NCBI GenBank assembly: GCA_000004985.1
Contig: GG738858.1
Origin: Naegleria gruberi
Lineage: Eukaryota
DNA: 64,000 nt
Reading direction: 5' to 3' (one strand)
Made by a program: the position numbers and the translations under genes. The notes under the pieces are model-generated. The model was not told the DNA's origin and did not search any database. It saw only the letters and a list, made by a program, of their open reading frames with translations. Shown here in pieces: positions 6,324 through 60,175 of this stretch (positions are counted from its first letter, which is position 1; every line of letters begins with the position of its first letter).

Positions 6324-6394
6324 CTCGAACGCCGGGAATTGAACCCGGGTCGCCAGAGTGACAGTCTGGAATGCTACCACTATACCACGCCCGA
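6324..6394 (-). tRNA. trnD-GUC: tRNA-Asp (anticodon GUC)
   Basis: Reverse complement is TCGGGCG TG GTAT AGTGGTA GCAT T CCAGA CTGTCAC TCTGG CGAC CCGGG TTCAATT CCCGG CGTTCGA G. It gives a cloverleaf with the anticodon loop CUGUCAC and a GGTTCAATTCC T-arm. Confidence 0.8.
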
Positions 6395-6599
6395 TTACAT
6401 ACCTTACGAAATCTCACCTTAATTCACCTTAATAACAAATCTCACTCAATTCTGGCTAATTTGTATTTATTCAAAGGTATTTATGTTTTTAAAAGCTCCA
6501 TGAACTTGGCTGGAAATTCAATTAAATGTGGAAACTTCTCTATTTGTTTCAGATGTGCATTTTCGAAAATGCATCTTTTTTTTCAAATATGAATCACAA

Positions 6600-7808
6600 A
6601 TGGACAAAGTTGATGGAAACACAACCAAAAAAATGGATCCACAACTAACGTTCAAGGCATACAGCAAGATTGAAAATCATCATCAGGAGAGTTTCGTTTC
6701 AAAGTTATTGGAAAAGGAAACTGAAGATTCGGATAAGAAATTGGAATGGGTTTGCTTGGAGAAAGTGCATGGTAGCAATTTCAGCTTTATTGTTGTTCCT
6801 AAAGAAGGATCACAAGATAAAGTTGAAGTATTGAAAGCAAATCGTACCAATGTTCTTACCATATTAAGTAATTTCTTTGTGGAAGCTCAAAAAGAAGTTT
6901 ACGAAAGATATTACAAGAGTTGTGTTAAATTATTCGAAATTATTTCTCAAAATGCAGAAAAATTCAAACGAAAGACTATGGAAACTGAAAGTGAAATTAC
7001 AAAAATTCACATATTTGGTGAATTATTTGGTGGATACTTTCCAAAATTGAAAAATGATCAAGATTCGAATGGTATTCGTAAAGCACACATTCAAAAAGGT
7101 GTTTACTATTGTCCACATTATGATTTTTACGTATTTGATGTGGCAGTGACATTTGGCGACCAAGATACTTGGTTACTTTTCGATGAGGCAGATCCAATTC
7201 TTGAAGAAGCAGGATTTAGAGTTAGAGCTAAACCACTTTTTAGAGGTTCATTGAAGGAATGTTTGGATTTTGATGTGGAAATTAACACGATAATTCCACA
7301 AACTTTTTATTCTGACATTTTGACAGAAAATGATATTTTATTTAAGGAAAAGGAAAATATTTGTGAAGGAGTGGTGATTAAACCTGCTAATGGTACTGTA
7401 TTTGTCGGATCGAGGGCAATTATTAAGAAGAAGAATTCAAAATTTACTGAAGTCAATCCTGCCAAAGATAAATCTAAACGAATGAAGAAACAGGAAAAAT
7501 CTGTGGATCAAGACGAACAAGAAATGATTTCTAATGTGTGGAATGAAATTGAGCGATATTTGAATAATAATCGTCTTGATAATGTCGTTTCCAAAGTTGG
7601 AAATATTACTAGAGAAAATCTTTCACTTGTTTTGAAGAATTTTGTGAACGATGCCATTGAGGATTATGATAAAGATCAACAAGAATTGGGAGAAGAAGGA
7701 GCTACCCTATCATCCCTTCCAGTCAACATTCAAAAATCAATCAAGAAGAAATTGGGATCCACCTGTCAAGCAATTCTTCTAAAATACATGAACGAAAACA
7801 AACAATAA
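6600..7808 (+). CDS. ATP-dependent RNA ligase, Rnl2 (RNA ligase 2) / RNA-editing-ligase family, 402 aa
   Basis: First ATG is at 6600 (MDKVDGN..); the track start is GTG at 6528. Nucleotidyltransferase motif I is the Rnl2-type K-x-H-G-x-N-F (EWVCLEKVHGSNFSF). Further motifs are IFGELFGG and EGVVIKP (motif V). Confidence 0.6.
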   Translation: MDKVDGNTTKKMDPQLTFKAYSKIENHHQESFVSKLLEKETEDSDKKLEWVCLEKVHGSNFSFIVVPKEGSQDKVEVLKANRTNVLTILSNFFVEAQKEVYERYYKSCVKLFEIISQNAEKFKRKTMETESEITKIHIFGELFGGYFPKLKNDQDSNGIRKAHIQKGVYYCPHYDFYVFDVAVTFGDQDTWLLFDEADPILEEAGFRVRAKPLFRGSLKECLDFDVEINTIIPQTFYSDILTENDILFKEKENICEGVVIKPANGTVFVGSRAIIKKKNSKFTEVNPAKDKSKRMKKQEKSVDQDEQEMISNVWNEIERYLNNNRLDNVVSKVGNITRENLSLVLKNFVNDAIEDYDKDQQELGEEGATLSSLPVNIQKSIKKKLGSTCQAILLKYMNENKQ

Positions 7809-14143: not shown

Positions 14144-15739
14144 ATGTGTTGTTTTGGTTGTGTATTTTCCAATTTTTTCAGAGAAGTAATGGGAGTAAGA
14201 GAATTTACGATCCGTCTGTTTAAGAGCGAAGATCGTTCGAAAACATACAAACCACTGATTGATATCCTTCCGTGGTGGGCTGTTTTAGTCCTTTTTATTA
14301 TTGCAACAGTATTATTTGGTATTGCTATCATTGTGGGTGTCTTTGCAGGCCCAGTCGTATTGGATTCACACTATGTGGAAATGGATACAAGAAAGAACAC
14401 AACAACAAGTTCACGTGGATCTATTGATTTTGTGCCAAGAACATCATCACATTTGAGATATGCTCAATATACTTTGGATGGAGATCATGATGATCTCAAG
14501 CCACTTTTCTATGGTCAAGAACAAGTCTTGGCTACAGCACCAACAACATTTAGTGCCATTAATCAAGAGATTAATTTTCTCTGTTATTTGAAATCTAATA
14601 CTTCAACATTTTCTGTGGAATCTGAAAAGGCCTTTGGTTTCCAAAAGTCTAACCTCCAGTTCTTCTTGCAACTTTTTGGTAAGGATGAAGCTGATGGTGA
14701 TTGGGAGCTTATTGTGAATGGTACCTATTCCAGACCATTGGTTTGTACTTCCACTAGTGAACTCTGTGATCCAATTACACTATTCTATGAATCACATATT
14801 AGACATCCATACTATCGTATTGGTGTGAGCTTCCTCAACTCTCGTGAATTATATGATAATACTCTTATTGATCCACATTTCGTCAAGATGGAATTTGAAA
14901 GCTACAATGCTGCTTATTCAAATTGGGAATTGGGCTGGAGATATAGTATAATCTTTATCACTGCTCCACTCTGTATTGCTTTCATTATTGCCAATATTAT
15001 TAGAAGTCACTTTGTAAATTGGGCTACTGAACAAAAGTGGATTGGATTGTTGCTCATTTTCCTTGTACTTTACAATAATCCTATTTTTGCATTGATTTTC
15101 ACAGCAGGTAACTGGGCTTTCTCCTTTATTAATATTGTATTTATTATTAGTTTCGTTTGCTTTTTAATGTTTGTGGTGCTGGTTTTCACTGATTCTCTTG
15201 TCATTCCACAAAAAGATAGATCATTCCTGTGGTTCTACATCCCAAAGATTGTATTGGTTGGCATTCTCTTTGTATTTGTCATTACTACCTTTACCTACGT
15301 CAGACTTCAAGAACAAGAAGATCCAGGTTACAATTTGGGAATTGTTCAAGGACTTTCCTCATATCAAACATTGGGCATTATTGTTGTATTGATTATGCTT
15401 GTCTACATCTTTGTTCTTATTTATTATTTGATGAGAGTTATTGAAAAGCACAGAATGAACTTGTTACCAAAGAGAAATGCTTGGCGTAGTAAGGTTATTT
15501 GGTTCTTGACCATTACAATGGTTATTGGTACTATTGTGGAAATCTTCCTCTACGTTTTCAGTAAGGATTGGAATAGCTCTGCTCAATTCTTGTCCTACTT
15601 TATGTTCTACAGTTTGTACGTTTGGCTCATTACCATTCTCTATTGGCCAAGCTTTACTGCCGTTCAACAAGAAGAATTCGACGAAGAAAATAACACCCAA
15701 GCCAAAGAAGATGATTACTTTGATGAAATGGATGAATAA
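14144..15739 (+). CDS. multi-pass membrane protein (N-terminal TM, luminal domain of about 190 aa, then about 7 TM, acidic C-tail), 531 aa
   Basis: ATG at 14144; the second ATG at 14189 (MGVREF..) is also a possible start. The hydrophobicity pattern is seen in the translation. No catalytic motif recognised. Confidence 0.45.
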   Translation: MCCFGCVFSNFFREVMGVREFTIRLFKSEDRSKTYKPLIDILPWWAVLVLFIIATVLFGIAIIVGVFAGPVVLDSHYVEMDTRKNTTTSSRGSIDFVPRTSSHLRYAQYTLDGDHDDLKPLFYGQEQVLATAPTTFSAINQEINFLCYLKSNTSTFSVESEKAFGFQKSNLQFFLQLFGKDEADGDWELIVNGTYSRPLVCTSTSELCDPITLFYESHIRHPYYRIGVSFLNSRELYDNTLIDPHFVKMEFESYNAAYSNWELGWRYSIIFITAPLCIAFIIANIIRSHFVNWATEQKWIGLLLIFLVLYNNPIFALIFTAGNWAFSFINIVFIISFVCFLMFVVLVFTDSLVIPQKDRSFLWFYIPKIVLVGILFVFVITTFTYVRLQEQEDPGYNLGIVQGLSSYQTLGIIVVLIMLVYIFVLIYYLMRVIEKHRMNLLPKRNAWRSKVIWFLTITMVIGTIVEIFLYVFSKDWNSSAQFLSYFMFYSLYVWLITILYWPSFTAVQQEEFDEENNTQAKEDDYFDEMDE

Positions 15740-19125: not shown

Positions 19126-19196
19126 AGGGAGATAGTTCAGTGGTAGAACATGGGATTGTGGTTCCTAAGATCAGGGTTCGATTCCCTGTCTTCCTA
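19126..19196 (+). tRNA. trnH-GUG: tRNA-His (anticodon GUG)
   Basis: AGGGAGA TA GTTC AGTGGTA GAAC A TGGGA TTGTGGT TCCTA AGAT CAGGG TTCGATT CCCTG TCTTCCT A. It gives a cloverleaf with anticodon GUG. Confidence 0.75.
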
Positions 19197-19279
19197 CACC
19201 TTTTATTTTATTTTTTACCCAATAAGAATATCTGGTATTTTATAATTCTTGTTCGATTTTTTTAATAAGAACATCGTAA

Positions 19280-19351
19280 AGCAAATTGGCGCAGCGGAAG
19301 CGCGATGGGCTCATAACCCATAGGTCCTAGGATCGAAACCTAGATTTGCTA
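19280..19351 (+). tRNA. trnMi-CAU: initiator tRNA-Met (anticodon CAU)
   Basis: AGCAAAT TG GCGC AGCGGAA GCGC G ATGGG CTCATAA CCCAT AGGTC CTAGG ATCGAAA CCTAG ATTTGCT A. Eukaryotic initiator hallmarks are present: A1:U72, three G:C pairs in the anticodon stem, and an A-rich ATCGAAA T-loop. It is followed by a T6 run. Confidence 0.8.
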
Positions 19352-19539: not shown

Positions 19540-22521
19540 ATGGGTTCAAGTGTTTCGGATTCTAGAAATGACAAGAGTGCACTTCAAAAAGCGTATCAAG
19601 AAGAAGCAAATGATGAAGAGGACGATGGTTCTGATCAATACCCTATTGATGAATTATCTAAAACTGCAGTTGATCAACAACAACTGGAAGGTGGCCGAAA
19701 CCTGTCGAATTATTTTTCTGAATTTGAAATTGTTTCTTCACAAAAATTCAAAAACAAAAAGCAGTACACTTTTCGATATAGGATTATTCAGAAAAGTGAT
19801 CAGATTGGGTGTCTAGGAAGTGCATTCAAGTGTACAGAAAGCATTGTTGGATTTTCACCAAATCGAGAACGAGTTGTGATTGTGAAAAAATTAAAATATT
19901 TACCAGATTTACATCATTCGATGGATTTGATTGGAAACATGTTGGAAGAAAGTTTGGAAATGCATTATTGGCATATGGGGAGAGTTTTAAATTGTTTCAA
20001 AATTGAGAATAATAATGCGCAGGATTGGTTTTTAGTGTCAGAATATTATCCTTTGGGAAATTTGACAGATTTGAGAAAGTCAATGAGTGAAGTTTCGATT
20101 TCTTTAATGTTACAACTTGTTTATCAAGCAGTAATGGCTATTAGATATTTAAATTCCAGAAATTTGGTTCATAGAAATATCAAAATGGAAAATATTCATG
20201 TCAGATATTTTACAAATGACAGATTGACAATTATTTTGGGAGATTTAGGAACGTTATGTCAATTGAATGGAGATTCTATGGAAATTCCGCTCACCAGTGT
20301 TTCAACCTTTGAAGATTCTGACAAACTCATAGACAATTCCATAATAGGAACTTTAGGATATCGAGATCCTTTATCCATTAACAAACGAAGAATTCACATC
20401 AAATCTGACATTTGGAGTTTGGGAATAACCTTACTGAAATTCCTATTCTTTACAGATCTCCCAGCAACTGTCAATTTGGAAGAAGATTCTCAAGAAAATA
20501 TTGAAGAATTATTGGATTATTTATTTTCTCCATTGGAAATCAAAGATCATGCTTGGGCTTCTGTAAAACAGTTGATTTCTGGCATGTTGAGGATTAATAT
20601 TTATGAAAGATATGGAACGAATAGAATTTTGACTGATATTTTTGATATTGAACAAGTTTCGAATGTCGAAAATTTGGATTCGAATTACTTTTTACTGAAA
20701 CAAGTATTCAAGAATCATGAATCAGTAATTTCGACTCTTTTATCTCAAAATGGAATGATGCTACCACACATGCCAGATTCTATTCGAAGGAATAAGAAAT
20801 TTGTAATGATTGCAATTCAGAACAATCCATTTTCATACGAATTCATATCTGAAACCTTAAAGAATGATTCTGAAATAATGATCAGCACTTATTTGAAAGA
20901 TAGCAGAACAAAATACTTATTTACAAGGAAATTTACTGAACAGGAGGAGAAACAATTAAAGATTCGAGCAATTCCACTTGAAAGAAACTTATCTGAAAGT
21001 GAACGAAACGATTTTACTTTCATTTCGAATCTAGTTACCAAGGATGGAAGATATTTGGCACTGGCATCACCAAAACTGAGAAGCAACTTTGAAATTGTCA
21101 AGAAAAGTCTACTTTCGAATGGTTTAGCCCTCGAATTTGTTTCCCCAGAATTGAGAAAGGTCAAGGAATTTATGGAAATTGCAATTGACCAAAATCCACT
21201 TTCTCTTGCCTTTGTTGATTATTCATACAAGAATAGCTTTGAGATTGTCAAGAAGGCAGTTCAGCAAAATGGACTAGCTCTGGAATTTGCATCAAATCAA
21301 CTCAAGCTTAATAAGGAAATTGTCAAAATTGCTGTCAGTCAAAATTGTAAGAGTTTGGCATTTGTTCCAAGTGCTCTGATTAGCAATGATCCAGAATTAT
21401 TATGTTCTCTCCTTTCTTATGATTCAGATTCTATAGAAGAATATGAAAAACATTGGATTGCGACATTTGACATTTTCAATTGGATTATTTCACAATTCAG
21501 AAACAATACCAAATCGACATTCTTCAAAAATTCAAACCTCCTAACAATGTATTGCATCTTGGAAGAGAACGACCTCATCCAAGTTGATCCTAAAATTCTA
21601 TTCGAAATGTATGTCGAATCTTCCAACAAGAAACAAATTTATTCACTTTACAAAATGGGAATTTTATATTTCCATGGAGAAGATTTAATGGGAATTGAGA
21701 GGAATTTGGAAATGGCAGTTCAATATTTTGAACAAGCAGCTCAACTGGGATTAATTGATGCCTACATGTCACTTTATTCAATATATTCGAGTGATGACCA
21801 AGATGTCAAAAAGGCAGTTCAGTATTTGACAAGTGCTGCAACGAAGGGAAATGCTCAAGCTCAATGGAATCTTTGCGAATTGTATGCAAAGGGAGAGGGC
21901 GTTCCAAAAAGTAGTGAACTGTCAATGAAATGGATGAAAAAATCAGCTCAGAATGGAAATGTTGAAGCACAGCTGTCACTTGCCAATTATTATGAACAGG
22001 ATGCCACTAAGGATGTTATACTAAGCTTTGAGTGGTGTCTGTTAGCTGCTGATCAAGGATTTCCCGAAGCACAATTTCAGTTAGGTGAAAAACTAATGAA
22101 TGGAATTGGATGTCAACAAAATGTGTCACTTGCCATTCAACATTTTGAAAAAGCAGTTAAAGAAGGACATGTCCTCTCAATGCTCAATCTCGGTCTCATT
22201 TATTTCCAATCATCAACTTTACAAAATCATGAAAAATCTTTAAAATTCCTTTTACTAGCTGCCGAAAATGGAAATATCGATGCTCAACACAATATTGGAT
22301 ACTTTTTCGCATCTAAGAATGAATTTGAGAAGGCCTTTACATGGTACATGAAATCTCATCTTGCCAATCATCCAAATTCATTCTCTGAAATTTCACAAAT
22401 GATTTTACGAAATGAATTGAAATTCAAAAAAGTTTCTGGATTTATTGCCAAGGAAGCAATGAATGGAAATGAACAAGCAATTAAATTATTGCAAGAATTG
22501 AAAGAAAGAGGTGAGGAATGA
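19540..22521 (+). CDS. N-myristoylated (MGSSVS) kinase-like protein with degenerate catalytic loop (HRN instead of HRD), DUF4116-like repeats and C-terminal Sel1-like repeats, 993 aa
   Basis: ATG at 19540. Kinase-fold motifs LVHRNIKMENIHV, LGDLGT and DIWSLGITL. Repeats of about 30 aa read ..EIVKKAVQQNGLALEFASNQLK... Sel1 motifs (GNAQAQWNLCELYAKGEGV; GNVEAQLSLANYYEQ). Confidence 0.65.
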   Translation: MGSSVSDSRNDKSALQKAYQEEANDEEDDGSDQYPIDELSKTAVDQQQLEGGRNLSNYFSEFEIVSSQKFKNKKQYTFRYRIIQKSDQIGCLGSAFKCTESIVGFSPNRERVVIVKKLKYLPDLHHSMDLIGNMLEESLEMHYWHMGRVLNCFKIENNNAQDWFLVSEYYPLGNLTDLRKSMSEVSISLMLQLVYQAVMAIRYLNSRNLVHRNIKMENIHVRYFTNDRLTIILGDLGTLCQLNGDSMEIPLTSVSTFEDSDKLIDNSIIGTLGYRDPLSINKRRIHIKSDIWSLGITLLKFLFFTDLPATVNLEEDSQENIEELLDYLFSPLEIKDHAWASVKQLISGMLRINIYERYGTNRILTDIFDIEQVSNVENLDSNYFLLKQVFKNHESVISTLLSQNGMMLPHMPDSIRRNKKFVMIAIQNNPFSYEFISETLKNDSEIMISTYLKDSRTKYLFTRKFTEQEEKQLKIRAIPLERNLSESERNDFTFISNLVTKDGRYLALASPKLRSNFEIVKKSLLSNGLALEFVSPELRKVKEFMEIAIDQNPLSLAFVDYSYKNSFEIVKKAVQQNGLALEFASNQLKLNKEIVKIAVSQNCKSLAFVPSALISNDPELLCSLLSYDSDSIEEYEKHWIATFDIFNWIISQFRNNTKSTFFKNSNLLTMYCILEENDLIQVDPKILFEMYVESSNKKQIYSLYKMGILYFHGEDLMGIERNLEMAVQYFEQAAQLGLIDAYMSLYSIYSSDDQDVKKAVQYLTSAATKGNAQAQWNLCELYAKGEGVPKSSELSMKWMKKSAQNGNVEAQLSLANYYEQDATKDVILSFEWCLLAADQGFPEAQFQLGEKLMNGIGCQQNVSLAIQHFEKAVKEGHVLSMLNLGLIYFQSSTLQNHEKSLKFLLLAAENGNIDAQHNIGYFFASKNEFEKAFTWYMKSHLANHPNSFSEISQMILRNELKFKKVSGFIAKEAMNGNEQAIKLLQELKERGEE

Positions 22522-22927: not shown

Positions 22928-25900
22928 ATGACTCGATTATTACTCACGACAGTTGTCATTTGTATTTCAATTTTGTTAGCCCTGACAGGATATATCAGTG
23001 CCGCGGTTACATGCAATGGTGTAGATCAGACAGATCCTTCAACCTGCAGTGGTCATGGTCTATGTAAAAGCAACAATAATTGCGCATGTCTTGACATGTC
23101 ACCTGCCAATACATTAATTTCACAAACTGGAGGATACAATGGCATTCCAACAACATTAAATACCTCACGAACGCTAACTTCATCAAATGGTCAATATCAA
23201 GCATCATTAGATCCATCAACAGGTCGTTTACAAGTCCAAGATGTCACCAACTCGACCATCGTTTATCAAAGTGCAACTTTATTATCAGCAGCTTTATTTG
23301 CACCTTTTGAATTAAGATTATTTGTACCTTCATCTACTACCTGTCAAATATCAATTTATGGAAATAATGTATTAGGTTTGACATTGACAGGTACAGTAAG
23401 TGCAATTTTGCCATGCAGATTGGTCATGAGAAATAATGGAGAATTAGTAATGTACAGTTCCGCTGGGTTTGTTTGGTGGACAACAAATCCATCACTGTCA
23501 ACTGGCACTGAAGATTTAATTTATCAAGGTGTCAATTGCGCTTCACCAACTTGTTATGGAATTTTGGCAGAATCTCCAAATGTTTGTTCTGGAAATGGAA
23601 CTTGCACCTTTACTAATTCATGTTCTTGTAAAAGTGGACATTTCGGAGATTTATGTGATGCTTTTAAATGTTTTGGAAATTTGGCAAATGACACGTTGAA
23701 TGTTTGTTCAGGAAATGGAAATTGCATTTCTCCAAATGTTTGTTCGTGTAATTCTGGATTTTATGGACCTAATTGTGATTTAATCAAGTGTTTTGATGTG
23801 CTCAGTAATGAAACATCGAGTGTTTGTTCTGGACATGGAATTTGTTCGAGTACTGACAATTGCACTTGTGCAAACGGTTATTTGGGGAGTAAATGTAATC
23901 AGTTCGAGTGCTTTGGAATTTCAAATTCAGTAACTTCAGGACTCCAATTGCCATGCTCTGGAAATGGAACATGTACTGGAATAGATCAGTGTGTATGTCA
24001 ATCTGGATTTATTGGAAATGAATGTGAAACATTTAAATGTTCTAATTTTCTCAAGAATGACACTTTGAATGTTTGCTCTGGTAATGGATCATGTATTGCT
24101 CCTAATCAGTGTTCATGTCAATCTGGATTTTTCGGTTCGACATGTGAAGCTTTCAAATGTGGAAATGCATTATTCAATTCGAGTTCAGTATGTTCTGGAA
24201 ATGGATTTTGTAATGCTCCAGATCAGTGCATTTGTAAGAATGGTTATTCTGGATCATTGTGTGATAAATTCACTTGCTTTGGAATTGCCAATGATTTAAC
24301 AAGTGGTGGTCCATTAGCAGTTTGTTCTGGAAATGGAACATGTTCTGCGTTGGACAAGTGCATTTGTAATTCTGGATTTTTGGGTGACAGCTGTGACACT
24401 TTCAAATGTTTTAACAAGTTGAAGAATGATAGTTTGGTTTGTTCTGGTAAGGGAAGTTGCATTCTTCCAGAAACTTGTTCATGTTCGTTGGGATATGAAG
24501 GATTGAATTGTGACGGTTTCAAATGTTTTAACAAATTGAAAAATGATAGTTCAGTATGTTCAGGAAATGGATTATGTACTGATATTAATCAATGCTCGTG
24601 TAAGAATAATTGGTTAGGTCTTGATTGTTCTGTCACTTCTTGCTTTAATTTACTGTCAAATGACACAACTGTTTGTTCTTCGAAAGGAAGTTGCGTTGGA
24701 TTTAATCAATGCTCATGTCAATCTGGATATTTTGGTAGTCTATGTGATGTTAAGAAATGCTTCTCCTACCTGTCAAATGAAACTTCACTTGTCTGTAATG
24801 GACAAGGAACATGTACTGATCTTGACACTTGTTCCTGTAACTCTGGATTCCTTTCGAATGACTGTAGTGTCAATACGAATCCATTTTCCATTTCTTTGAA
24901 CGTTTCTTCACTTTCCATTTATCAAGCTACTTCTTGGAATAGTGTGAAAATTTCCCTGTCAGAAGTTTTAAATGTCAATTTAATTAATTTCAATTGGTAT
25001 TGCTTGGATTGTGTCACCAGGACAAGTTCTAATCTCCAGAAGGGACTTGTGAGTTCTTCACAAATTTTACAATTTAGAACTTCAGATTTAGTGGCAGGAA
25101 CTTTTACATTTATTGCAAATGCAACATTTTCGAATATTTCACCATATCCAAAACGGGTTTCGAATAGTGTTTCATTTAAATTGACTGTATTGGATATTAA
25201 TGTTCCTACTTTGGATGTTTTTGGACTTCCTTCAGTAATTATTTCAAAAATTGATCAACCAATTTCTAGTATAGTTTCTAGCATGACTTTAAATCAAACT
25301 TTGATTCAAAGTTTTATTGGAAAGTGTTCGAATGTTAGCTGTTCAACGCAGGTCACTTATTCTTGGACTATTTCATCTGCCGATAATACATTCAAGGCAT
25401 CTTCTGATGGAATTACTAATATTCTCAACTTGGTTGATTCTACTATTACAATTTCACCTCCAATTCAATTGACCACAAATTTATTGTCACTACTCAATAG
25501 TACTTTGACATTTTCTTTGAGTATTGTCAATCCATTACTGAAATCATTAACTTCATTGATCCAAATCCCAATTGTCTCTCCAGCTTTACCACCAACAGTT
25601 AATATTCCTGGATGGACAAGTGACGTTTACGGAGCTAACACGACCATTTCAAATGTCATGAGAGTTAGCCCAAGTCAAGGTATTTCACTCACTAATTTAT
25701 TCACTATAACTATTGAATCATGGAGTGCTGATTCTAGACTCCTTCCTCTCAAGTATGCTGTTGGATTTTATGATAAAAAGACGAGTAAGCCAATTAGAGT
25801 AACTGAATATTCGAATCAAACCGAAATTTCAATTTATTTACCTTATATGAAGTCATCTAGTTCAAAGAGATCTATTACTGCTGATTTGGAGAGTGTTGAA

Positions 25901-28687
25901 TTGGTTGTGTTTATTATGGATGTGATTGGAAATATCGATTTCAGAAAGTCAGCAACTGTCTACCTGTCACCTTTTAGTGGAACAGCTACTCAATTGACAG
26001 AAAAGATTAATTCATTGACAGGATATGCAATTACTGTTGCCTCCTATGATCAATCCTTGTCATTATTGAGTAGTACAGTTAGTGATTTAACTCTCAGTCT
26101 GATTAAGAACATTACAATTGATCCAAAATTCCCAACAGCTGCTCTTAATAGTTTACAATCTTTGACAGCTGATGTCAATTCATTGACAAGAGAAATTGTT
26201 ATTGAGGTGAATAGCAAATTGAATGGATTTATTACATCTGTGAATGGCAGCTATGCTGATGATAAGAAGAATTACGGATTTGTCAAGAGCAAACTAGCAA
26301 ATTCTGATGTGACTTTGACAGTTTCTGTCAGTTCTAATTTATTGCAAAGTGTATTCGAAAGTGAAGGTACCAAGAATGTTGTCAATCAATTGGTTTCTAC
26401 TATTTTATTTGGAGAAATCGCTAACATGATTCAATCAAGTCAAAAAACACTTAGTTCAGTTTCGTATAGTTCCAATCTAATTGACTTTGCAGTTTCCAGC
26501 TTTATATTGTCCAATCAAGTGAAATCGAATCAAACTCAATCTATCCTTATGGGTAACTACACCAGTGTCTCTATGAATATTTCAAATATCATGAGTCAAT
26601 ATAATGCATTCTCAAAAGATTGTGGAATTTCTCTAATTGTCTATTCCAAGAATACTAACTTTGACAATTCTACTAACAAATTGAAACTTGTTTCAAGTGT
26701 TAACGATTTCAAGTTCAGCGTTGATTCATCTGTTGTGCCTCTCTCAGATTTGACTCAACCAATTATTCTTCAATTTGAGCTTGTGGACGAATTGACTACA
26801 ATTTTAGAATCTTTGAAAAATGAAACTCTGAATGTAACTCAAAATGATCCAACTCAATCCCTCTCAACCAATGAACAAAAGTATTTGTGTAAATATTGGG
26901 ACGAATCAAGTCAATTGTGGAGTTCTAAAGGATGTTCCTTCAAGAGTGTGAATTTACAATCCAAAACAATTGAATGTTCATGTGTTCACACAACCATGTT
27001 TACAACATTCATTGAACAGAACAGTACATTTATCAGTAATCTTAAAGATCAAGTATCAGCTCTCTATTCAGTCCAAATAGCTTTTGGCATCATCTATGCA
27101 AGTGTTGCTACTGTAATTTTAATTGGATTAATTGCATTCAGAAAGGAACAACCAGTTTCCTCCAGATTAATGACTCCATATTTTGGAATGGTTGCCTTGA
27201 TCGCAGAAAGTGTTTTGATTTACATTATTCAGAGAAGTATTTTGGCTGATCAATTGTTGAATTCTTCACCATCTGTATGGGAAACTGGTGATACAGCTGC
27301 TAATATTATTGCCAATGTAGTTGCTATCGTTGTCAATACTTTGAATTTGACAGCTATTTTGAGCTATGTCATTCAAGTGACAAGATTCCAATTAATGAAA
27401 TACTTGTATCAAATCTTGTCTTCCAGTAGAGGAAATGAACAAAAGAGTGAACATACAATTAATGTTATCAGATTTTTGACAGCTCCAAGTTTGTCAAATT
27501 CAATTCTTTCAGCATTTGCTGGTGTGAATGTAATTTATTGGTTATTGTGGGTAATTTTGAGAAGAACCAATGCAATTGAACCAGCCACCTATACTTACAT
27601 TGTTTCCATTTCGTATACAGTGTGCATTCTTGTATTCAGTGTCTTGATTACTATTGTGGCTGTTTTAGATTTTATTGGCTCTACAAAGAAACATTTGGAC
27701 ATGAATACAAAGAGAAGAACAGCTATGGATCACTTAGTTGAGAATCCAAGCTCTAGTTTCAAGAAGGATAAGAAGAAATTCGTTGGAAATCCAGCCAAAA
27801 TTTTCAGAGATTGGCTTATTACATTGGACGGTCCTCTCTACTTTAGAATGGAAATGATCTTGTACATTATTTGCTTTATTTTCTTAGTTTTGAATCAAGG
27901 TATTGGATTGAGTAGTTTACCATACAGATATGAAAGTGTTGATTCATTTAGAAAAGCTCTCCTTTCTGATGGAATTTCGTTTATCTTTGAAGTTTTATAT
28001 GTAGTGAGCTATATTTTCGTATTTGGTGGATATGCACTGATTATCACACTCAAATACAAGTATCAAAAGTGGAAATATCAACAAGCACTCAAGGCAGCAG
28101 CTACAGAACCTCAAAATGAGGAAATTTGGATTGATGAGGCAGTTGATGAAATTCTCTCATCCCAAGAAGGAACAAGTCTATTCGAAACTTTTTGTGTCAA
28201 GGAATTCTCATGTGAAAATCTCTATCTCTATCAAGATTTACATGCCAATAAGGAAATTATTGATGGAAACAATTTCAAGGACCTTCCAAGATTCATGTCC
28301 TTTGTTTTCCACAACTATGTCAAAGTGGGAGCTCCATCAGAAGTCAACCTACCTTCCAGTAGTAGAAACTCATTCCTATTCCTCTTCAGATCAGCACTCT
28401 CTCAAAAAGAAACCTTCTCCTCCAGCCAACAAATTAAATTGGATTCGAATCTGTTGCGAGATTTCGAAGCAGTAGAAAAGGAAATTCACACCGAAAATAT
28501 TCCAATTGTCGAGTTGAATGCAACAAATATTAAGGATTGCTTTGAAAATTTGGATAGAAATGTTTTGATTAATATTGGAGATACCTTCTCTCGATTTGTT
28601 TACACTCCGGAATATAAGATTTTTAAAAAGGCAAAGGAATTGCAAAATGCAATGATTCAAAAGGCAAATATTGTGTATGGATTGTAA
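22928..28687 (+). CDS. adhesion-GPCR-like giant receptor: signal peptide, bulb-type lectin, about 20 EGF-like repeats, Ser/Thr-rich stalk, GPS motif, 7TM, C-terminal RGS domain (1919 aa)
   Basis: ATG at 22928 with a hydrophobic leader. Lectin signature (CRLVMRNNGELVMYSS). Repeated C-x-C-x-x-G-[FY]-x-G-x-x-C EGF units. GPS consensus C..W......W...GC....(17)..C-S-C-V-H-T-T-M-F. Seven hydrophobic helices at about aa 1360-1660. RGS signature (FETFCVKEFSCENLYLYQDL). Single exon. Confidence 0.75.
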   Translation: MTRLLLTTVVICISILLALTGYISAAVTCNGVDQTDPSTCSGHGLCKSNNNCACLDMSPANTLISQTGGYNGIPTTLNTSRTLTSSNGQYQASLDPSTGRLQVQDVTNSTIVYQSATLLSAALFAPFELRLFVPSSTTCQISIYGNNVLGLTLTGTVSAILPCRLVMRNNGELVMYSSAGFVWWTTNPSLSTGTEDLIYQGVNCASPTCYGILAESPNVCSGNGTCTFTNSCSCKSGHFGDLCDAFKCFGNLANDTLNVCSGNGNCISPNVCSCNSGFYGPNCDLIKCFDVLSNETSSVCSGHGICSSTDNCTCANGYLGSKCNQFECFGISNSVTSGLQLPCSGNGTCTGIDQCVCQSGFIGNECETFKCSNFLKNDTLNVCSGNGSCIAPNQCSCQSGFFGSTCEAFKCGNALFNSSSVCSGNGFCNAPDQCICKNGYSGSLCDKFTCFGIANDLTSGGPLAVCSGNGTCSALDKCICNSGFLGDSCDTFKCFNKLKNDSLVCSGKGSCILPETCSCSLGYEGLNCDGFKCFNKLKNDSSVCSGNGLCTDINQCSCKNNWLGLDCSVTSCFNLLSNDTTVCSSKGSCVGFNQCSCQSGYFGSLCDVKKCFSYLSNETSLVCNGQGTCTDLDTCSCNSGFLSNDCSVNTNPFSISLNVSSLSIYQATSWNSVKISLSEVLNVNLINFNWYCLDCVTRTSSNLQKGLVSSSQILQFRTSDLVAGTFTFIANATFSNISPYPKRVSNSVSFKLTVLDINVPTLDVFGLPSVIISKIDQPISSIVSSMTLNQTLIQSFIGKCSNVSCSTQVTYSWTISSADNTFKASSDGITNILNLVDSTITISPPIQLTTNLLSLLNSTLTFSLSIVNPLLKSLTSLIQIPIVSPALPPTVNIPGWTSDVYGANTTISNVMRVSPSQGISLTNLFTITIESWSADSRLLPLKYAVGFYDKKTSKPIRVTEYSNQTEISIYLPYMKSSSSKRSITADLESVELVVFIMDVIGNIDFRKSATVYLSPFSGTATQLTEKINSLTGYAITVASYDQSLSLLSSTVSDLTLSLIKNITIDPKFPTAALNSLQSLTADVNSLTREIVIEVNSKLNGFITSVNGSYADDKKNYGFVKSKLANSDVTLTVSVSSNLLQSVFESEGTKNVVNQLVSTILFGEIANMIQSSQKTLSSVSYSSNLIDFAVSSFILSNQVKSNQTQSILMGNYTSVSMNISNIMSQYNAFSKDCGISLIVYSKNTNFDNSTNKLKLVSSVNDFKFSVDSSVVPLSDLTQPIILQFELVDELTTILESLKNETLNVTQNDPTQSLSTNEQKYLCKYWDESSQLWSSKGCSFKSVNLQSKTIECSCVHTTMFTTFIEQNSTFISNLKDQVSALYSVQIAFGIIYASVATVILIGLIAFRKEQPVSSRLMTPYFGMVALIAESVLIYIIQRSILADQLLNSSPSVWETGDTAANIIANVVAIVVNTLNLTAILSYVIQVTRFQLMKYLYQILSSSRGNEQKSEHTINVIRFLTAPSLSNSILSAFAGVNVIYWLLWVILRRTNAIEPATYTYIVSISYTVCILVFSVLITIVAVLDFIGSTKKHLDMNTKRRTAMDHLVENPSSSFKKDKKKFVGNPAKIFRDWLITLDGPLYFRMEMILYIICFIFLVLNQGIGLSSLPYRYESVDSFRKALLSDGISFIFEVLYVVSYIFVFGGYALIITLKYKYQKWKYQQALKAAATEPQNEEIWIDEAVDEILSSQEGTSLFETFCVKEFSCENLYLYQDLHANKEIIDGNNFKDLPRFMSFVFHNYVKVGAPSEVNLPSSSRNSFLFLFRSALSQKETFSSSQQIKLDSNLLRDFEAVEKEIHTENIPIVELNATNIKDCFENLDRNVLINIGDTFSRFVYTPEYKIFKKAKELQNAMIQKANIVYGL

Positions 28688-32443: not shown

Positions 32444-34072
32444 TTATTTTCTCTTTTTCTTTTGTTTAATTTCTTGTTTGAATTTCATAAATGGTTCTGC
32501 CATTGATTCGCAAACACTCTTTTGCAATTCATCAAACAAGTCGTCTTCTAAAATGCTAGAAGATGAGAATTCATCCAATCTTGTTTTAACTCGTTCTTGA
32601 AGAGCAGTGCTTGTTTTGAATGGTGTTTCTCCATTTACATCAATGAATTCAGTAAATATCTTGAAAGCAACTTCGTATTTGTTTCTTTCCAATTCCTCAA
32701 CTTTCTCAATTTCCTCAATATCGCTAATTTTCGTATTCTTGCTCTTTTGTTCAGCAACACCTCTCAAGTAGTGGGCTTCCTCACAGAGTTCCTTGTAAGA
32801 GTGGCAATTGTCCAACAAGGTAAATGAATCCAAACAATTTTCTCTATCACAGAAAGCTCTGAATAAAGCATTATACTTATCACTTCCAACAGTTTCCATT
32901 ATCATAATATGAGCAGCTTTTCGGAGTTTTCTTGTGCTTGTAACTTCAGTAGTCAATGCCATGGCAAAGATTAAAATAACTATTGGAACACTAACAATTA
33001 CACCAAACAAAACTAAACCCATGTTCACAGCGCTTGCCATCCTTAAATACTCTTTCTTCTCATTTGCAAGTTTGACAATTTCTTTTTGTACTTTGATTAA
33101 GAAAAGTTGGGTTATAGTATCTGCTGAATAGTATTGGAATGATTTTCTTTTTTCCCTTGCAGATATCATGTCTCCAATAGCCACATAATCCATAACTAGA
33201 TCATTCAAAGTAGTTATTTGCGTATTCAAATATTCGGATGGTTTCACAGTTCCATTAGGCAAAGTTAGTGCAAGCTCTACTAGGGTGGTATTGGCAAGGG
33301 CTCGCTTTATATAATATTCCCCAACCAGACTCTGGTTTCCAGTGGCTGCAGCTACTCTTACAGTACAGTCAATATCGTGATAGAGTTGCAAGTAGTCTGT
33401 TCTCTTGAGGAGCATATAGGTTTCCTTCTGGGCATCCAATTTGAAAGCATTTCCAACAATTACAGCCACAGCTATAAAAGCAGCAATATTGATAAGCATA
33501 CCAAACAGTGAGAGAATTCTGACAAGATTCAGTTCTATTATACCACAACATGTAGGAATACGAAATGTCACCGAAGAGACGGTAGACTTGCCCGACTTGG
33601 CTGTTGTCTTACTGAATATTGATTCAACTGTAGGTTTTTGTGGTTGAGCAAACGAGACTCTTTTATCACCTGGTGTTTGTGGAGTATTGTTTTGGGCTCT
33701 ACTCATTCTATATTGTTGTTGTTGTGGTTTAATTGAAGATAAGGTTAATGGTTTAGTGACAAATCTTCTAGCAAAGTGTACCACAATACTATCGGCATCA
33801 CTACAGGCATCGTCATCTTCGTCGTCTTCATCCTCAATTTTAGTTTGTTCCTCATTGTGAGTATTGACAGTGATACAAACTTTCTCTTGAGCTTGTTCTT
33901 CGTCAATCTTTTTCAAATCCTTTAGTTCAATAGATGTTGAAGTAGAAGGATTGTCTTGATGATTCTGAATGGTTTCAATTGTTTGTGATGGGGGTGTTGA
34001 AGATGGATGATCACCTTCAGGCGACGAAGTAGAAGATAACGAAGAAGACATTTTTTGTGTGTTGGTATTCAT
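32444..34072 (-). CDS. two-TM receptor-like RGS protein (S/T-rich N-term, TM1, ectodomain of about 150 aa, TM2, cytosolic RGS domain), 542 aa
   Basis: ATG at 34072. TM segments are LFGMLINIAAFIAVAVIV and LVLFGVIVSVPIVILIFAMAL. RGS-domain signature (FRAFCDRENCLDSFTLLD...KYEVAFKIFTEFI...LFDELQKSV). Confidence 0.65.
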   Translation of the reverse strand: MNTNTQKMSSSLSSTSSPEGDHPSSTPPSQTIETIQNHQDNPSTSTSIELKDLKKIDEEQAQEKVCITVNTHNEEQTKIEDEDDEDDDACSDADSIVVHFARRFVTKPLTLSSIKPQQQQYRMSRAQNNTPQTPGDKRVSFAQPQKPTVESIFSKTTAKSGKSTVSSVTFRIPTCCGIIELNLVRILSLFGMLINIAAFIAVAVIVGNAFKLDAQKETYMLLKRTDYLQLYHDIDCTVRVAAATGNQSLVGEYYIKRALANTTLVELALTLPNGTVKPSEYLNTQITTLNDLVMDYVAIGDMISAREKRKSFQYYSADTITQLFLIKVQKEIVKLANEKKEYLRMASAVNMGLVLFGVIVSVPIVILIFAMALTTEVTSTRKLRKAAHIMIMETVGSDKYNALFRAFCDRENCLDSFTLLDNCHSYKELCEEAHYLRGVAEQKSKNTKISDIEEIEKVEELERNKYEVAFKIFTEFIDVNGETPFKTSTALQERVKTRLDEFSSSSILEDDLFDELQKSVCESMAEPFMKFKQEIKQKKKRK

Positions 34073-34585: not shown

Positions 34586-37300
34586 TTAAAAGAAGAAGAA
34601 AATGATCATCATTGCAATCACCAAGTATGAGGCAGTGAAGTTGTGAATGGATGAGGTATGACTAAGGACAGGTTCTGGAGGAATTTCAACAGAGGAAACT
34701 TGCAAATTATATCCACTAATTAAGAGAGCAAAGTTTTGAGAACCAACATTCTTCTCCGATGATCTGATATTAATAATAATCGATGAGGATGAATTGGAGG
34801 TGTTTGGAGGAATGTTAATGGTGAGTGATTCGACATTGTTTCTATCATCAATTAGGGAGGAATCTTGAATGTTTCCATAGTTACATTGTTGATTACCGTA
34901 GCAGAGAGTATGAATTGGTGAGGAGGAGGAATCATCCTTGATGGAAACTGAGAGATCTAAATTGTTGATTAGCACTTTGGCTGAGTTGGTGGATGAGCTA
35001 ACAGGTGTACCTTTCAAATCAAACCAGGTGAGTGTAACTTTCAATGGATTGGAGCTTGCCAAATTATTGGTCAACTTCATTGTGATGGTAATGTTTGAGG
35101 CAACATTGATTTTCTGTCTATTGATTGTGAATAGATCTGGATTGGAATCCTTATCTGAAAACTTCATTGTATTGGCAATATTCACTCTACCGTAACCTGT
35201 GTACTTGTTTGGAGTTTTCTCTTTGGATAGATCACGATAATTGTTTTCGTTTGTGAAAACACCATCCAACTTGACTGTACCCATCAACTTCTCTCCAGAG
35301 TGAATAACAAAACCCTTTACAAGCATGCCACTCAATGTTTGATTTGGATTCTTATTAATCAAATCAAGGTTGACCAATCTTTGCTTGCTATTTTGAAGGA
35401 AGTATTCTCTAACCAGAGCAGAAACACCTGAGATAGCTGGACAGGCCATACTAGTTCCTGTCTTCTGAGTTAGCCCAGTTGAATCACAGAATGGAATATA
35501 ACTTCTAGCACTCCAAATTTTCACTCCAGGAGCTACAATGTCAGGCTTAAATCTATTATCAAATGTTGGACCTCTTGCTGAAAAATAGCCCAAATTGTCA
35601 TGATTGTAAAGTGTTGTATTGATATTTGGTTCATATCTGGTGTATTCATCAGATGTGGCATAGGCAGCACCAACTGAGATACAATTCTTGGCAGTAGATG
35701 GAGCTAGTTCAAAAATTGTTACAATTTACCAAGTGAACAATATACTTACAAATAACAGACTTTTCCTGTCCATAGTAACCACTATTACCAGCAGCAAAGA
35801 CAACTAACATTTCATCATTGGCATTGGTGAATTCATCAATTTGTGCAGAGAGTGTTTCATAAGTGTTACCAAGTTCACAACATCTTAAACCATATTGTTG
35901 AAGACAATACTCATCCTTCACTGGTTTGGAAAGATTGGATTTGGCTTCATAGCAATCACAATCAAATTGGCAATCTAAATTATTGGTATTTCCCCAACTG
36001 TTGCTGGAAATTCTTGCACCACTGGCATAAGCCCTAATCAAGTAAGATGTCATGTTGGAAACTGAGAAGAAAAGTGTAATACCAGAATCAATCATGTGAA
36101 TTTTAGCATCTTTGGCAATACCCATATCATTATCAATTCCTGAAGTTGAACTTGGTTGACCAGCAACTATTATTAAGGTAAAATAACAAAGAATGAAAAC
36201 AACAACTTACTAATTCCAGAACAGTGAGTACCATGACCATTGGCATCGTAAAAATCTCCTGTTGTACCTCTCTCGTAAAGTACAACCTTTCTATTTTTGG
36301 TATTCAAAGTAGAATAATCTTCATTTGGAGAAGAGAAGAAACAATGACTGTAATCAAGACCTGAATCAACAATATTCACAATCTCACCCTTTCCAGTTAC
36401 ACCATTATCCCAAGCAAATCTCGAAACATTAACCTTACGATTGTATTGAACAACATTATTGGAGCCGTACAATAATAATGATTGAGAAAATTCTCTTTCA
36501 ACATAGTCTACATCTTCATTATCTAAAATGTTGCTCATTAAGAAATCTGACATGTGACTCATCAAGGCACTCCTTTTACCATTGTTATTCCACAAGCTTG
36601 CATCTCCATCAACCAAGGAAATTGAAAACATTCTTCCTCTTTCTTCAATCAAAATTGAAGAACTTGCAAGAATTTCATTAATACTCTCAGAACTTCTTCT
36701 CACAGAACTTTCAATCAATTGAGTAGCAAACTCATGATTGAATTTGGTATTCATCTTGGAAAGGAAGAGTGGCAATTTTTCTTCAAATTCACTATTCATT
36801 ACAACTCTGAGTTTGGAAAATCTCAAACTGTCCATAGAAAATTGAGGAAACAAAATTCTCTTCTCATTGCTAACTCTTTCAATTCTGTAAATGTATTGTC
36901 TGTAGGAGGATTCGCTTTTAATTTCATCAATTCTTTGTAATGAGAGTCTAGTTCTAAACACTCTGTTATCTGTTCCACTGACAGTTTCTAATCTTTCGGT
37001 ACGAATGTTGCTGCTACTTGGACCGAAAACAATTCTATTTAATTGGTCTAAATGAAAATCGGAAAGGATGACATTATCATGAATTTTAATGTCTACAAGA
37101 AGTTTTGCATTATTCGAAAGTGTTCTTGCAGCTGATGATGATGGTTTATCCAACAAATTTAAACCATCCAATGTATGAGGAAATCTGCTATGAGCAACAA
37201 CTGAGAATGCCAAACCGAGGAGGAATAGGCATACCACCAATATTGTTCGCTGCATTATTTTTTTGTAAAGTATCGAATAATTGCATAGTAGACATGTCAT
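34586..37300 (-). CDS. subtilisin-like serine protease (peptidase S8) with C-terminal extension of about 330 aa and hydrophobic tail (874 aa), 3 exons: 37300-36211, 36166-35750, 35703-34586
   Basis: Catalytic triad D (VNIVDSGLD), H (HGTHCSGI|IAG across intron 1) and S (GTSMACP). SNSWG and AAGNSG motifs are present. Intron 1 is 36167-36210 (GTAAGT..AATAG, phase 1) and intron 2 is 35704-35749 (GTAAGT..AACTAG, phase 1). The signal-peptide-like MQRTILVVCLFLLGLAFS follows a possible upstream ATG. Confidence 0.75.
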
Positions 37301-59871: not shown

Positions 59872-60175
59872 GGGTTTGGGTTTGGGTTGGGTTTGGGTTT
59901 GGGTTTGGGTTTGGGTTTGGGTTTGGGTTTGGGTTTGGGTTTGGGTTTGGGTTTGGGTTTGGGTTTGGGTTTGGGTTTGGGTTTGGGTTTGGGTTTGGGT
60001 TTGGGTTTGGGTTTGGGTTTGGGTTTGGGTTTGGGTTTGGGTTTGGGTTTGGGTTTGGGTTTGGGTTTGGGTTTGGGTTTGGGTTTGGGTTTGGGTTTGG
60101 GTTTGGGTTTGGGTTTGGGTTTGGGGTTGGGTTTGGGTTTGGGTTTGGGTTTGGGTTTGGGTTTGGGTTTGGGTT
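59872..60175 (+). repeat. (GGGTTT)n telomere-type tract (about 50 units), truncated by assembly gap
   Basis: Perfect gggttt hexamers with 2 variants. It runs into N at 60176. Confidence 0.85.

Follow-up and report, generated by a model that had tools for sequence, protein, structure and literature searches.

A predicted Naegleria gruberi 7TM RGS protein with lectin-like, EGF, REJ-like and GAIN/GPS modules

Results

The gene and its domain order

NAEGRDRAFT_79129 of Naegleria gruberi belongs, as judged from its sequence, to the heterolobosean '7TM RGS' family and carries an adhesion-type ectodomain; in it a signal peptide is followed by a lectin-like region, EGF repeats, a REJ-like module, a GAIN/GPS region, seven transmembrane helices and an RGS box. 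We put at roughly 70% the probability that it works as a receptor-tethered GAP for self-activating Gα subunits. The gene lies on the plus strand at 22928..28687 of the window, the stretch of 64,000 nucleotides analysed here (GenBank assembly GCA_000004985.1, contig GG738858.1), as an ORF of 1919 aa plus stop. Its translation is identical at 1919/1919 aa to the deposited protein (XP_002679292.1; UniProt D2V990, named "GPS domain-containing protein"). The region is confirmed as a genuine, already deposited N. gruberi gene, and the deposited 1919-aa gene model, being identical to the ORF translation, agrees with the single exon proposed in an earlier note on this DNA.

The same note had considered that the ORF might be chimeric through misassembly. 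A chimera of assembly or annotation, or a pseudogene, is so improbable that we set it aside: a gap and repeat arrays do lie on the scaffold 31 kb downstream, but the 5.76-kb reading frame is uninterrupted and contains no N bases, every domain keeps its functional motifs, and the domain order is repeated, collinearly, in independent assemblies of four species, namely in paralogues within N. gruberi and in proteins of N. fowleri, N. lovaniensis and Willaertia. The predicted features, all on the plus strand, are as follows.

22928..28687, +: whole gene, 1919-aa ORF plus stop (identity to XP_002679292.1)
22928..23002, +: signal peptide, aa 1-25, with hydrophobic core aa 9-27 (Kyte-Doolittle 2.42, sequence reading)
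23009..23095, +: N-terminal Cys-rich partial EGF-like unit, aa 28-56 (EGF_2 13.8 bits, sub-threshold; sequence reading)
23111..23542, +: bulb-type (beta-prism II) lectin-like region, aa 62-205, weak assignment (weak PDB matches)
23543..24880, +: 11 six-cysteine EGF repeats of about 40 aa each, aa 206-651 (Pfam, count of six-cysteine units)
24881..25987, +: REJ-like module, aa 652-1020 (Pfam REJ core aa 911-1031, window 25658-26020)
25988..27013, +: GAIN domain, aa 1021-1362, with helical subdomain A and beta-sandwich subdomain B (AF2 model, Foldseek)
26885..27004, +: GPS motif, aa 1320-1359, the terminal part of GAIN subdomain B (Pfam, ADGRF1 alignment)
26987-26995, +: putative cleavage triad H1354-T1355|T1356, within the GPS motif
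27026..28063, +: seven-transmembrane domain, aa 1367-1712 (hydrophobic segments, AF2 helices)
28121..28666, +: cytoplasmic RGS box, aa 1732-1913 (Pfam, RGS16 alignment, Foldseek)
28406-28522, +: lineage-variable 39-aa insert inside the RGS box, aa 1827-1865 (RGS alignment)

The protein is predicted to be oriented N-out, C-in, with 25 lysine and arginine residues counted in the predicted cytoplasmic loops and 4 in the external loops, and with 31 N-glycosylation sequons in the ectodomain as against 4 elsewhere. A long adhesive ectodomain, a GPS motif and a 7TM domain are present in cis with an RGS box, as the earlier note had read them; the topology is correct, and the domain annotation agrees. 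The AF2 model of the whole protein reached a mean pLDDT of 73 and a pTM of 0.42 from an MSA of 10 sequences, and its domain orientations are therefore unreliable. Foldseek ranks 3-5 were axonemal microtubule proteins, which were discounted as long-helix noise.

A family of such receptors in Naegleria and Willaertia

At E<=1e-30, an exhaustive HMMER search recovered 94 cluster representatives; about 90 of these, 1200-2700 aa long, match all the way from GPS to RGS. All named family members come from N. gruberi, N. fowleri, N. lovaniensis or Willaertia magna. The family and the self-match were recovered by this exhaustive search only, since a word-indexed search for homologues of the C-terminal 819 aa returned 6 matches (5 in its profile version) and missed the identical N. 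gruberi protein. Ectodomains vary across the family and include EGF, NHL, RCC1-like propeller and Ephrin-receptor-like modules.

The combination of domains, of which the earlier note knew no description, had in fact been reported for N. fowleri by Bosch et al. 2022 (J Biol Chem, PMC9283941), who describe 28 N. fowleri 7TM RGS proteins, several of them with a GPS, EGF repeats and lectin domains and 'reminiscent of adhesion GPCRs'. In that work the RGS boxes of Nf 7TM RGS2, RGS3 and RGS4 are GAPs for Nf Gα2, Gα3, Gα5 and Gα7; Nf Gα5 and Gα7 self-activate, and N. fowleri also has Gα subunits that do not (PMC9283941). Assays of the RGS box of Nf 7TM RGS1, the closest relative to have been characterised, were uninterpretable.

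The ectodomain and its REJ-like module

The earlier note had read the ectodomain as a B-lectin followed by about 20 EGF repeats. The EGF array is present (Pfam EGF_2, 161 bits), but the count falls to about 12, made up of 11 regular repeats (aa 220-646) and one partial unit (aa 28-55). The lectin assignment is weak: all 17 phmmer matches of the N-terminal region against PDB sequences were bulb-type lectins, every one of them weak (best E 7.7e-4), but Pfam B_lectin (PF01453) gave no match at E<=10 in four different N-terminal segments. By sequence reading, the QxDxNxVxY sugar-binding motif is not intact, its best counterpart, 'RNNGELVMY', keeping only V and Y. A word search returned no homologues of this region, and a single-sequence AF2 model of it was unusable (pLDDT 41).

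A REJ-like module had been overlooked (PF02010, 34.5-35.6 bits against a cut-off of 25, the match spanning profile positions 319-434 of 452 only), and REJ is also present in relatives P0001, P0006 and P0008. Its placement directly upstream of GAIN/GPS, after lectin- and EGF-type modules, is shared with Polycystin-1, PKDREJ and sea-urchin REJ; lectin, EGF, REJ and GPS is also the domain order of the sea-urchin REJ proteins (suREJ). Both likenesses would favour a Polycystin-1/REJ-type receptor that works with an ion channel and is not GPCR-like, which we nevertheless hold to be extremely improbable, given that the protein has seven transmembrane helices in place of eleven (or one), that its C-terminal half is not channel-like, and that an RGS box is present. 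Furthermore, neither PLAT nor PKD_channel gave a Pfam match in NAEGRDRAFT_79129, and ICL1, at only 12 aa, could not accommodate a PLAT domain. Strict homology to polycystin-1 was rejected on the helix number, the length of ICL1 and these missing matches.

The GPS motif, the GAIN domain and the seven-transmembrane domain

The GPS motif passes its Pfam threshold (PF01825, 28.3 bits against a cut-off of 22.5). Its sequence, C1321-x2-W-x6-W-x4-C...C1350-S-C-V-H-T-T-M-F, adjoins TM1 and aligns with the GPS of ADGRF1 residue for residue, so that the Cys/Trp framework, whose absence would have spoken against the earlier note, is present on alignment. In the AF2 model, which also gives the secondary structure, the GAIN region has a pLDDT of 80-94 over most of its length, and the top Foldseek matches are CD97 (GAIN+7TM; 8ikj, E 1.7e-8) and the GAIN domain of BAI3 (4dlo_A, E 4e-7, TM 0.51). 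As modelled, the GPS is part of a complete GAIN domain. The proposed autoproteolysis context VHT|TMF is retained as regards H1354 and the +1 Thr, both conserved, but the triad is H-T|T and not the canonical H-L|T. The triad reads HTT in 82 of 86 relatives and HAT in 3, with H1354 and T1356 invariant. With the roles of the cleavage residues assigned after Araç 2012, the P-1 position is Thr where Leu is canonical, which makes cleavage uncertain. Directly after the putative cleavage site stands a Stachel-like strand, TMFTTFIEQ; a putative tethered-strand peptide would be TTMFTTFIEQNS.

Seven hydrophobic cores (aa 1381-1403, 1416-1439, 1459-1482, 1524-1546, 1562-1584, 1639-1661 and 1686-1708) correspond to seven long helices in the AF2 model, in accordance with the 7TM domain first proposed. 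ICL3 is 54 aa long and rich in lysine and arginine, and at the cytoplasmic end of TM3 the Arg of 'QVxR[FY]' (R1486) is nearly invariant across the family. The domain shows no sequence match to the adhesion/secretin family 7tm_2, and a 7TM-only profile built from 10 diverse members found nothing relevant among PDB sequences or in Pfam. Its modelled fold is that of a generic GPCR, with no preference for adhesion receptors. The label 'adhesion GPCR' in the earlier note accordingly fits the GAIN/GPS part, but not the 7TM domain, which has neither a sequence relation to 7tm_2 nor such a fold preference.

These features bear on whether the protein could be a bifunctional GPCR, its 7TM domain acting as a GEF that the tethered strand of GAIN activates, in the manner of adhesion GPCRs, with the cis RGS box as a built-in fast shut-off (kinetic scaffolding) and not as the main output. 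The GAIN/GPS does abut TM1, the His, the +1 Thr and the T-x-F-x-x-F-[ILVM] strand are conserved in 82 of 86 relatives, R1486 sits where stated above, and N. fowleri carries arrestin-like genes as well as Gα subunits that do not self-activate (PMC9283941). On the other side, the 7TM domain resembles no GPCR family in sequence, and the model published for plant and Trichomonas 7TM-RGS proteins is GAP-only. Moreover, the conserved strand doubles as the final beta-strand of the GAIN structure and could be conserved for that reason, without being an agonist. We regard the bifunctional arrangement as rather unlikely.

The RGS box

The RGS box follows TM7 directly on the cytoplasmic side, and only about 6 residues come after it. 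It scores 29.1-35.8 bits with PF00615 (cut-off 23.9), and once the insert is removed its alignment with the RGS16 chain (129 residues) runs from end to end and covers positions 11-126 of that chain (E 4e-6), so that the poor alignment which could have overturned the earlier reading did not occur. Foldseek comparison with RGS16, RGS8 and RGS17 gave TM values of 0.5-0.72. The Gα-contact motifs EFSxEN, EVN (with N1807 as its Asn) and D-x-[FY]-x-R-F are kept and are invariant or nearly so in 24 family members. GAP activity of the box is a prediction from this motif conservation.

Loss of GAP activity is known for some RGS domains (de Mendoza 2014), and the ectodomain is very large, modular and variable across the family, which would suit a molecule for adhesion or prey recognition whose RGS domain serves as a scaffold without catalysis, like those of GRKs or sorting nexins, and whose output is not through G proteins. 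We think this very unlikely in view of the retained Gα-contact motifs and of the paralogous boxes, which are active GAPs whose activity is blocked by the 'RGS-insensitivity' mutation, G to S in Gα switch 1 (PMC9283941).

Discussion

We prefer to read the protein as a GAP that is tethered to a receptor and acts on self-activating Gα subunits. At the membrane, the RGS box would hold fast-exchanging ('self-activating') Naegleria Gα in its GDP-bound form. A glycan, matrix, prey or another cell that engages the ectodomain might then alter the access or the activity of the RGS box, by which Gα signalling would be released or sharpened. The change could be conveyed by 7TM conformation, clustering or endocytosis, and possibly by GAIN cleavage or by exposure of the tethered strand.

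The known systems closest to this arrangement include AtRGS1 and the other plant and Trichomonas 7TM-RGS proteins, in which seven transmembrane helices precede a cytoplasmic RGS box, and for which the proposed logic is a receptor-like GAP that restrains self-activating Gα. AtRGS1 differs in that it is nearly devoid of an ectodomain, lacks GAIN/GPS and is endocytosed by way of its phosphorylated C-terminal tail, whereas NAEGRDRAFT_79129 has an ectodomain of about 1360 aa and no comparable tail. The endocytosis switch of plants may for this reason not apply to the Naegleria protein. Complexes of GPR158 or GPR179 with RGS7 and Gβ5 are also counted among the closest systems.

Metazoan adhesion GPCRs (CD97/ADGRE5, BAI3/ADGRB3, ADGRF1) share the long modular adhesive ectodomain, the GAIN domain, the Cys/Trp framework of the GPS, and the His and +1 Thr just before TM1, and they give the best structural matches. 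They differ in that the 7TM domain here is not 7tm_2, the triad is H-T|T and not H-L|T/S, and the predicted output is that of a GAP, opposite to a GEF. An RGS box is not known from any metazoan adhesion GPCR. According to de Mendoza 2014, 7TM-RGS proteins are absent from metazoans. The preferred reading could be extended to a 'sign-inverted adhesion GPCR', in which GAIN would cleave itself at H-T|T and mechanical or ligand-driven exposure of the T-x-F-x-x-F-[ILVM] strand would control a GAP in cis and not a GEF, the REJ-GAIN-7TM cassette of Discoba being early or transferred. This extension is speculative and, in our estimation, quite improbable. If it were true, an ectodomain cassette of the polycystin and adhesion-GPCR type would have been joined to 7TM receptors very early in eukaryotes, or would have been transferred between lineages.

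The architecture would indicate that an adhesion-type ectodomain with GAIN/GPS can be wired to a G-protein inactivator rather than to an activator. It is unusual for animals; in Naegleria and Willaertia, receptors of this kind number in the dozens, NAEGRDRAFT_79129 being one. Since the N. fowleri case was published in 2022, the N. gruberi gene adds no new kind of system, although N. gruberi itself is non-pathogenic and can be grown in culture. What is new in the present analysis is the REJ-like module, the complete modelled GAIN fold and the family-wide H-T|T triad in the ectodomain, together with a 7TM domain of GPCR fold without affinity to a GPCR class and an RGS box that is complete and bears an insert. 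The text of Bosch et al. (PMC9283941) mentions neither REJ nor a whole GAIN fold, and likewise neither the H-T|T triad nor a class-neutral fold of the 7TM domain.

The nearest likeness is to Nf 7TM RGS1-4, which by direct homology share EGF and lectin-type domains, the GPS, the 7TM domain and the C-terminal RGS box, but are separate paralogues in another species, about 50% identical to NAEGRDRAFT_79129. Both the cloning primers published for Nf 7TM RGS1 and its fragment length of exactly 180 aa fit the N. fowleri protein FDP41_005437 (P0012/P0152), which is by these sequence matches Nf 7TM RGS1; its identity to NAEGRDRAFT_79129 is 44% when the proteins are aligned over their full length and 52% over the part that runs from the GPS to the C-terminus, and it scores 806 bits against the GPS-7TM-RGS profile. 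The closest N. fowleri relative is FDP41_000688 (P0001 cluster), at 52% identity. A match of its VVYGI C-terminus and of 'NKEM' is suggestive of Nf 7TM RGS4, with a fragment of 188 aa as against the published 167.

The receptor gene and its product

The receptor is encoded by an uninterrupted open reading frame (ORF) containing no N bases, and its translation is identical at 1919/1919 residues to P0011, the deposited N. gruberi protein NAEGRDRAFT_79129 (EFC46548.1 / XP_002679292.1), which UniProt holds as D2V990 under the entry name 'GPS domain-containing protein'. The window is accordingly nuclear DNA of N. gruberi, and the gene is already in databases as one 1919-aa product equal to the ORF, in agreement with the single-exon reading of the earlier note. 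That note named a misassembly chimera among the things that would undo its reading; an artefact, the least likely of four alternatives considered here, is contradicted by the intact ORF and by an architecture shared by four species. A compact protist genome would be expected to look like these surroundings, with a GC content of ~33% and with actin, kinases, an LRR protein and a tubulin-like gene among the neighbours of the receptor gene. The features of the receptor are as follows.

22928..28687, + strand: receptor ORF, uninterrupted, 1919 aa
aa 1-25, +: signal peptide, from the receptor sequence
aa 28-56, +: Cys-rich, EGF-like partial unit
aa 62-205, +: putative lectin-like region, by resemblance to bulb-type (beta-prism II) lectins
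aa 206-651, +: EGF array, 11 regular six-cysteine units of ~40 aa each (regex; Pfam EGF_2, 161 bits)
aa 652-1020, +: REJ-like module, its C-terminal part above the Pfam REJ threshold
aa 1021-1362, +: GAIN domain (AF2 fold and Foldseek; GPS by Pfam)
aa 1367-1712, +: seven TM helices (hydrophobic segments and AF2 model)
aa 1732-1913, +: RGS box (Pfam RGS; alignment to RGS16)

Ectodomain

The B-lectin domain proposed from sequence alone was left unconfirmed by Pfam, homologues and structure. All matches of the region to PDB sequences at E<10 (17/17) were bulb-type lectins, its sole database similarity, but they were weak (best E 7.7e-4), and Pfam B_lectin gave no match at E<=10 in scans of four choices of N-terminal segment. 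A word search with the region returned zero homologues, its single-sequence AF2 model was unusable (pLDDT 41), and no intact copy of the QxDxNxVxY sugar site was present within it, the nearest being 'RNNGELVMY'; its lectin-like character is unproven. The EGF repeats, previously put at about 20, number ~12 (11 regular units and one partial). The conserved REJ-like module was absent from that first domain list; its C-terminal part scored 34.5-35.6 bits against a Pfam cut-off of 25, and REJ was also matched in the homologues P0001, P0006 and P0008.

GAIN domain and putative cleavage site

The GPS predicted in the note was confirmed by Pfam (28.3 bits, cut-off 22.5). It reads C1321-K-Y-W-D-E-S-S-Q-L-W-S-S-K-G-C1336...C1350-S-C1352-V-H1354-T-T1356-M-F and can be aligned to the human ADGRF1 GPS at every position, including both Trp and all four Cys. 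In an AF2 model covering aa 1021-1919, for which ten aligned sequences were used (mean pLDDT 73), a helical subdomain is followed by a beta-sandwich ending in the GPS strands, with pLDDT 80-94 over most of the GAIN part. Among PDB structures, Foldseek matched the model best to the adhesion GPCR CD97 in its inactive state, which comprises GAIN and 7TM (E 1.7e-8), and to a crystal structure of BAI3 GAIN/HormR (E 4e-7, target TM 0.51).

In the GPS mechanism, the general base is the His, and the carbonyl of the Leu at P-1 is attacked by the Thr at +1 (Araç et al. 2012, PMC3321182). The His and +1 Thr are invariant across 24 aligned family members; the HL|T context sought by the earlier note is therefore kept at these two positions, but P-1 in the window protein is Thr rather than Leu, giving an H-T|T triad. 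Among 86 relatives with a recognisable motif, the putative triad is H-T-T in 82, H-A-T in three and H-L-T in one, the last a crustacean adhesion GPCR matched over the GPS only. The strand after the triad, T-x-F-x-x-F-[ILVM], is also conserved among relatives, which may be purely structural because it is the last beta-strand of GAIN. The likeliest of the four alternatives to the receptor-tethered GAP proposed below is a bifunctional receptor whose 7TM domain would also activate G proteins via the tethered strand, with the RGS box as a built-in timer.

Transmembrane domain

Seven hydrophobic segments and seven long helices in the AF2 model agree with the predicted 7TM domain. The RGS box is placed in the cytoplasm because Lys and Arg number 25 in the predicted cytoplasmic loops versus 4 in the external loops, and N-glycosylation sequons 31 in the ectodomain versus 4 elsewhere. 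A polycystin-1-type protein, third of the four alternatives in likelihood, is contradicted by the count of TM helices, which is seven, by an ICL1 of 12 aa and by the lack of PLAT. No Pfam 7TM family matched the single sequence or ten diverse family members, and a search of PDB sequences with a 10-sequence 7TM profile, run to E<=10, yielded no GPCR; on sequence criteria the domain cannot be placed. A nearly invariant Arg at the cytoplasmic end of TM3 (R1486, in 'QVxR[FY]') recalls, by analogy only, the DRY arginine of class A receptors.

RGS box

The C-terminal RGS assignment holds: Pfam RGS scored 29.1-35.8 bits (cut-off 23.9), covering only profile positions 2-76 of 117 because a 39-aa insert (aa 1827-1865), variable in length across the family, interrupts the box. 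With the insert cut out in silico, the box aligns to positions 11-126 of the 129-residue RGS16 chain (E 4e-6). The motifs EFSxEN, EVN(L/I)PS and D-T-F-x-R-F are kept, and E1763, N1764, N1807, D1885 and R1889 within them are invariant in the 24-member alignment; we take these to be the Gα-contact residues E87/N88, N128, D163 and R167 of the RGS4-Giα1 structure. With these features the box appears competent for catalysis.

Family and distribution

A nine-sequence GPS-7TM-RGS profile, run in an exhaustive HMMER search, retrieved 2213 proteins at E<=1e-3; at E<=1e-30 there were 94 cluster representatives, ~90 of them 1200-2700 aa long and matched all the way from the GPS through the RGS box. Word-indexed searches missed most of the family, self-match included, and whole-protein Pfam scans under-report GPS and REJ. 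The nameable members come only from N. gruberi (at least ten paralogues), N. fowleri, N. lovaniensis and Willaertia magna, the others being metagenome or read-archive proteins; weaker matches in chytrids and a crustacean comprised RGS alone or GPS alone. Family ectodomains are modular: RGS was detected in all 24 members compared, EGF in 15, RCC1-like propellers in five and NHL repeats in five, while Ephrin-receptor-like and NCD3G modules each turned up once.

A quick neighbour-joining tree puts the window protein in one group with P0002 and P0014 of N. gruberi and FDP41_000688 of N. fowleri, adjoining a pair made up of N. gruberi P0013 and N. fowleri FDP41_005437; identity from GPS to C-terminus is ~50% for all these neighbours. 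The N. lovaniensis homologue appears to be divided between two adjacent gene models, P0006 / C9374_004465 (1260 aa, EGF-REJ-GPS-TM1) and P0007 / C9374_004464 (483 aa, the remaining 7TM and RGS), probably an annotation break rather than two genes.

Published relatives and proposed function

The earlier note knew of no description of this domain combination, and that claim does not hold: 28 N. fowleri proteins in which an RGS domain forms the C-terminal part behind seven TM helices, several of them with GPS motifs, EGF repeats and lectin domains, are already published (Bosch et al. 2022, J Biol Chem, PMC9283941). In that work, the isolated boxes of 7TM RGS2, 3 and 4 speed GTP hydrolysis by Nf Gα2/3/5/7, an 'RGS-insensitivity' Gα mutation removes this acceleration, and Nf Gα5 and Gα7 are self-activating. 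Translation of the published cloning primers identified FDP41_005437 (P0012/P0152) as Nf 7TM RGS1 by an exact 180-aa fragment; assays of its box were uninterpretable (PMC9283941). De Mendoza et al. (2014) had earlier recorded 7TM-RGS architectures in chytrids, filastereans, ichthyosporeans and many bikonts, and none in metazoans. For N. gruberi, van den Hoogen et al. (2018) report 229 RGS genes and >30 Gα subunits on the authority of de Mendoza.

The gene is an uncharacterised member of this published kind of receptor. A literature search found no paper joining 'GAIN domain' with Naegleria and, as far as we found, the published text lacks the REJ-like module before GAIN, the H-T|T triad shared across the family, the class-neutral 7TM domain that sequence does not place and the occurrence in Willaertia. 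These four details sharpen a known picture and define no new system.

The analysis demonstrates what the protein is, how its domains are arranged and oriented in the membrane, which folds they are assigned to, which motifs are conserved and to which family it belongs. Beyond this, the logic of AtRGS1 and the biochemistry of the N. fowleri proteins lead us to propose that a receptor-tethered GAP would keep Gα subunits with fast exchange switched off at the membrane and that engagement of the ectodomain would modulate it. An adhesion or recognition molecule, its RGS box serving solely as a scaffold, ranks second in likelihood among the four alternatives to this tethered GAP.

Other genes and elements in the window

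Another membrane-anchored RGS protein is encoded 3.7 kb downstream of the receptor gene (32444-34072, - strand). Its 542-aa ORF ends in an RGS box (PF00615, 26.6 bits, cut-off 23.9) and has two hydrophobic segments (aa ~189-207 and 353-371), but neither GPS nor 7TM. Directly upstream of the receptor, a gene (19540-22521, +) encodes a 993-aa protein with a protein kinase domain, five DUF4116 repeats and Sel1 repeats, and is preceded by tRNA-His and tRNA-Met (19126-19351); tRNA-Asp is at 6324-6394.

Three TTTGGG hexamer arrays (59871-60175, 61805-62234 and 63800-64000) look telomere-like, yet are interstitial in the scaffold, and TTTGGG arrays flank a 996-base N run (60176-61171), a scaffold gap. 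These repeats, together with the gap, account for the extreme GC skew, the low GC and the overlapping 'ORFs' (59824-61225 and 61682-62336), all of them artefacts.

A 531-aa ORF (14144-15739, +) of this heterolobosean amoeba strongly matches the Wntless-like transmembrane domain (PF06664, 199.8 bits). The 426-aa ORF at 6528-7808 (+) is a Naegleria homologue of phage/kinetoplastid-type RNA ligase 2 (RNA_ligase, 71.7 bits; T4 Rnl2 C-terminal domain, 89.3 bits). A single subtilase (Peptidase_S8) domain is divided between neighbouring ORFs at 34586-35593 and 36173-37300 (-), one piece matching profile positions 1-63 and the other 189-259; the two ORFs probably represent one gene interrupted by intron(s), or else a disrupted gene. 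Similarly, an actin fragment (5497-6225, -; profile positions 2-266) accompanies a full actin gene (1539-2738, -).
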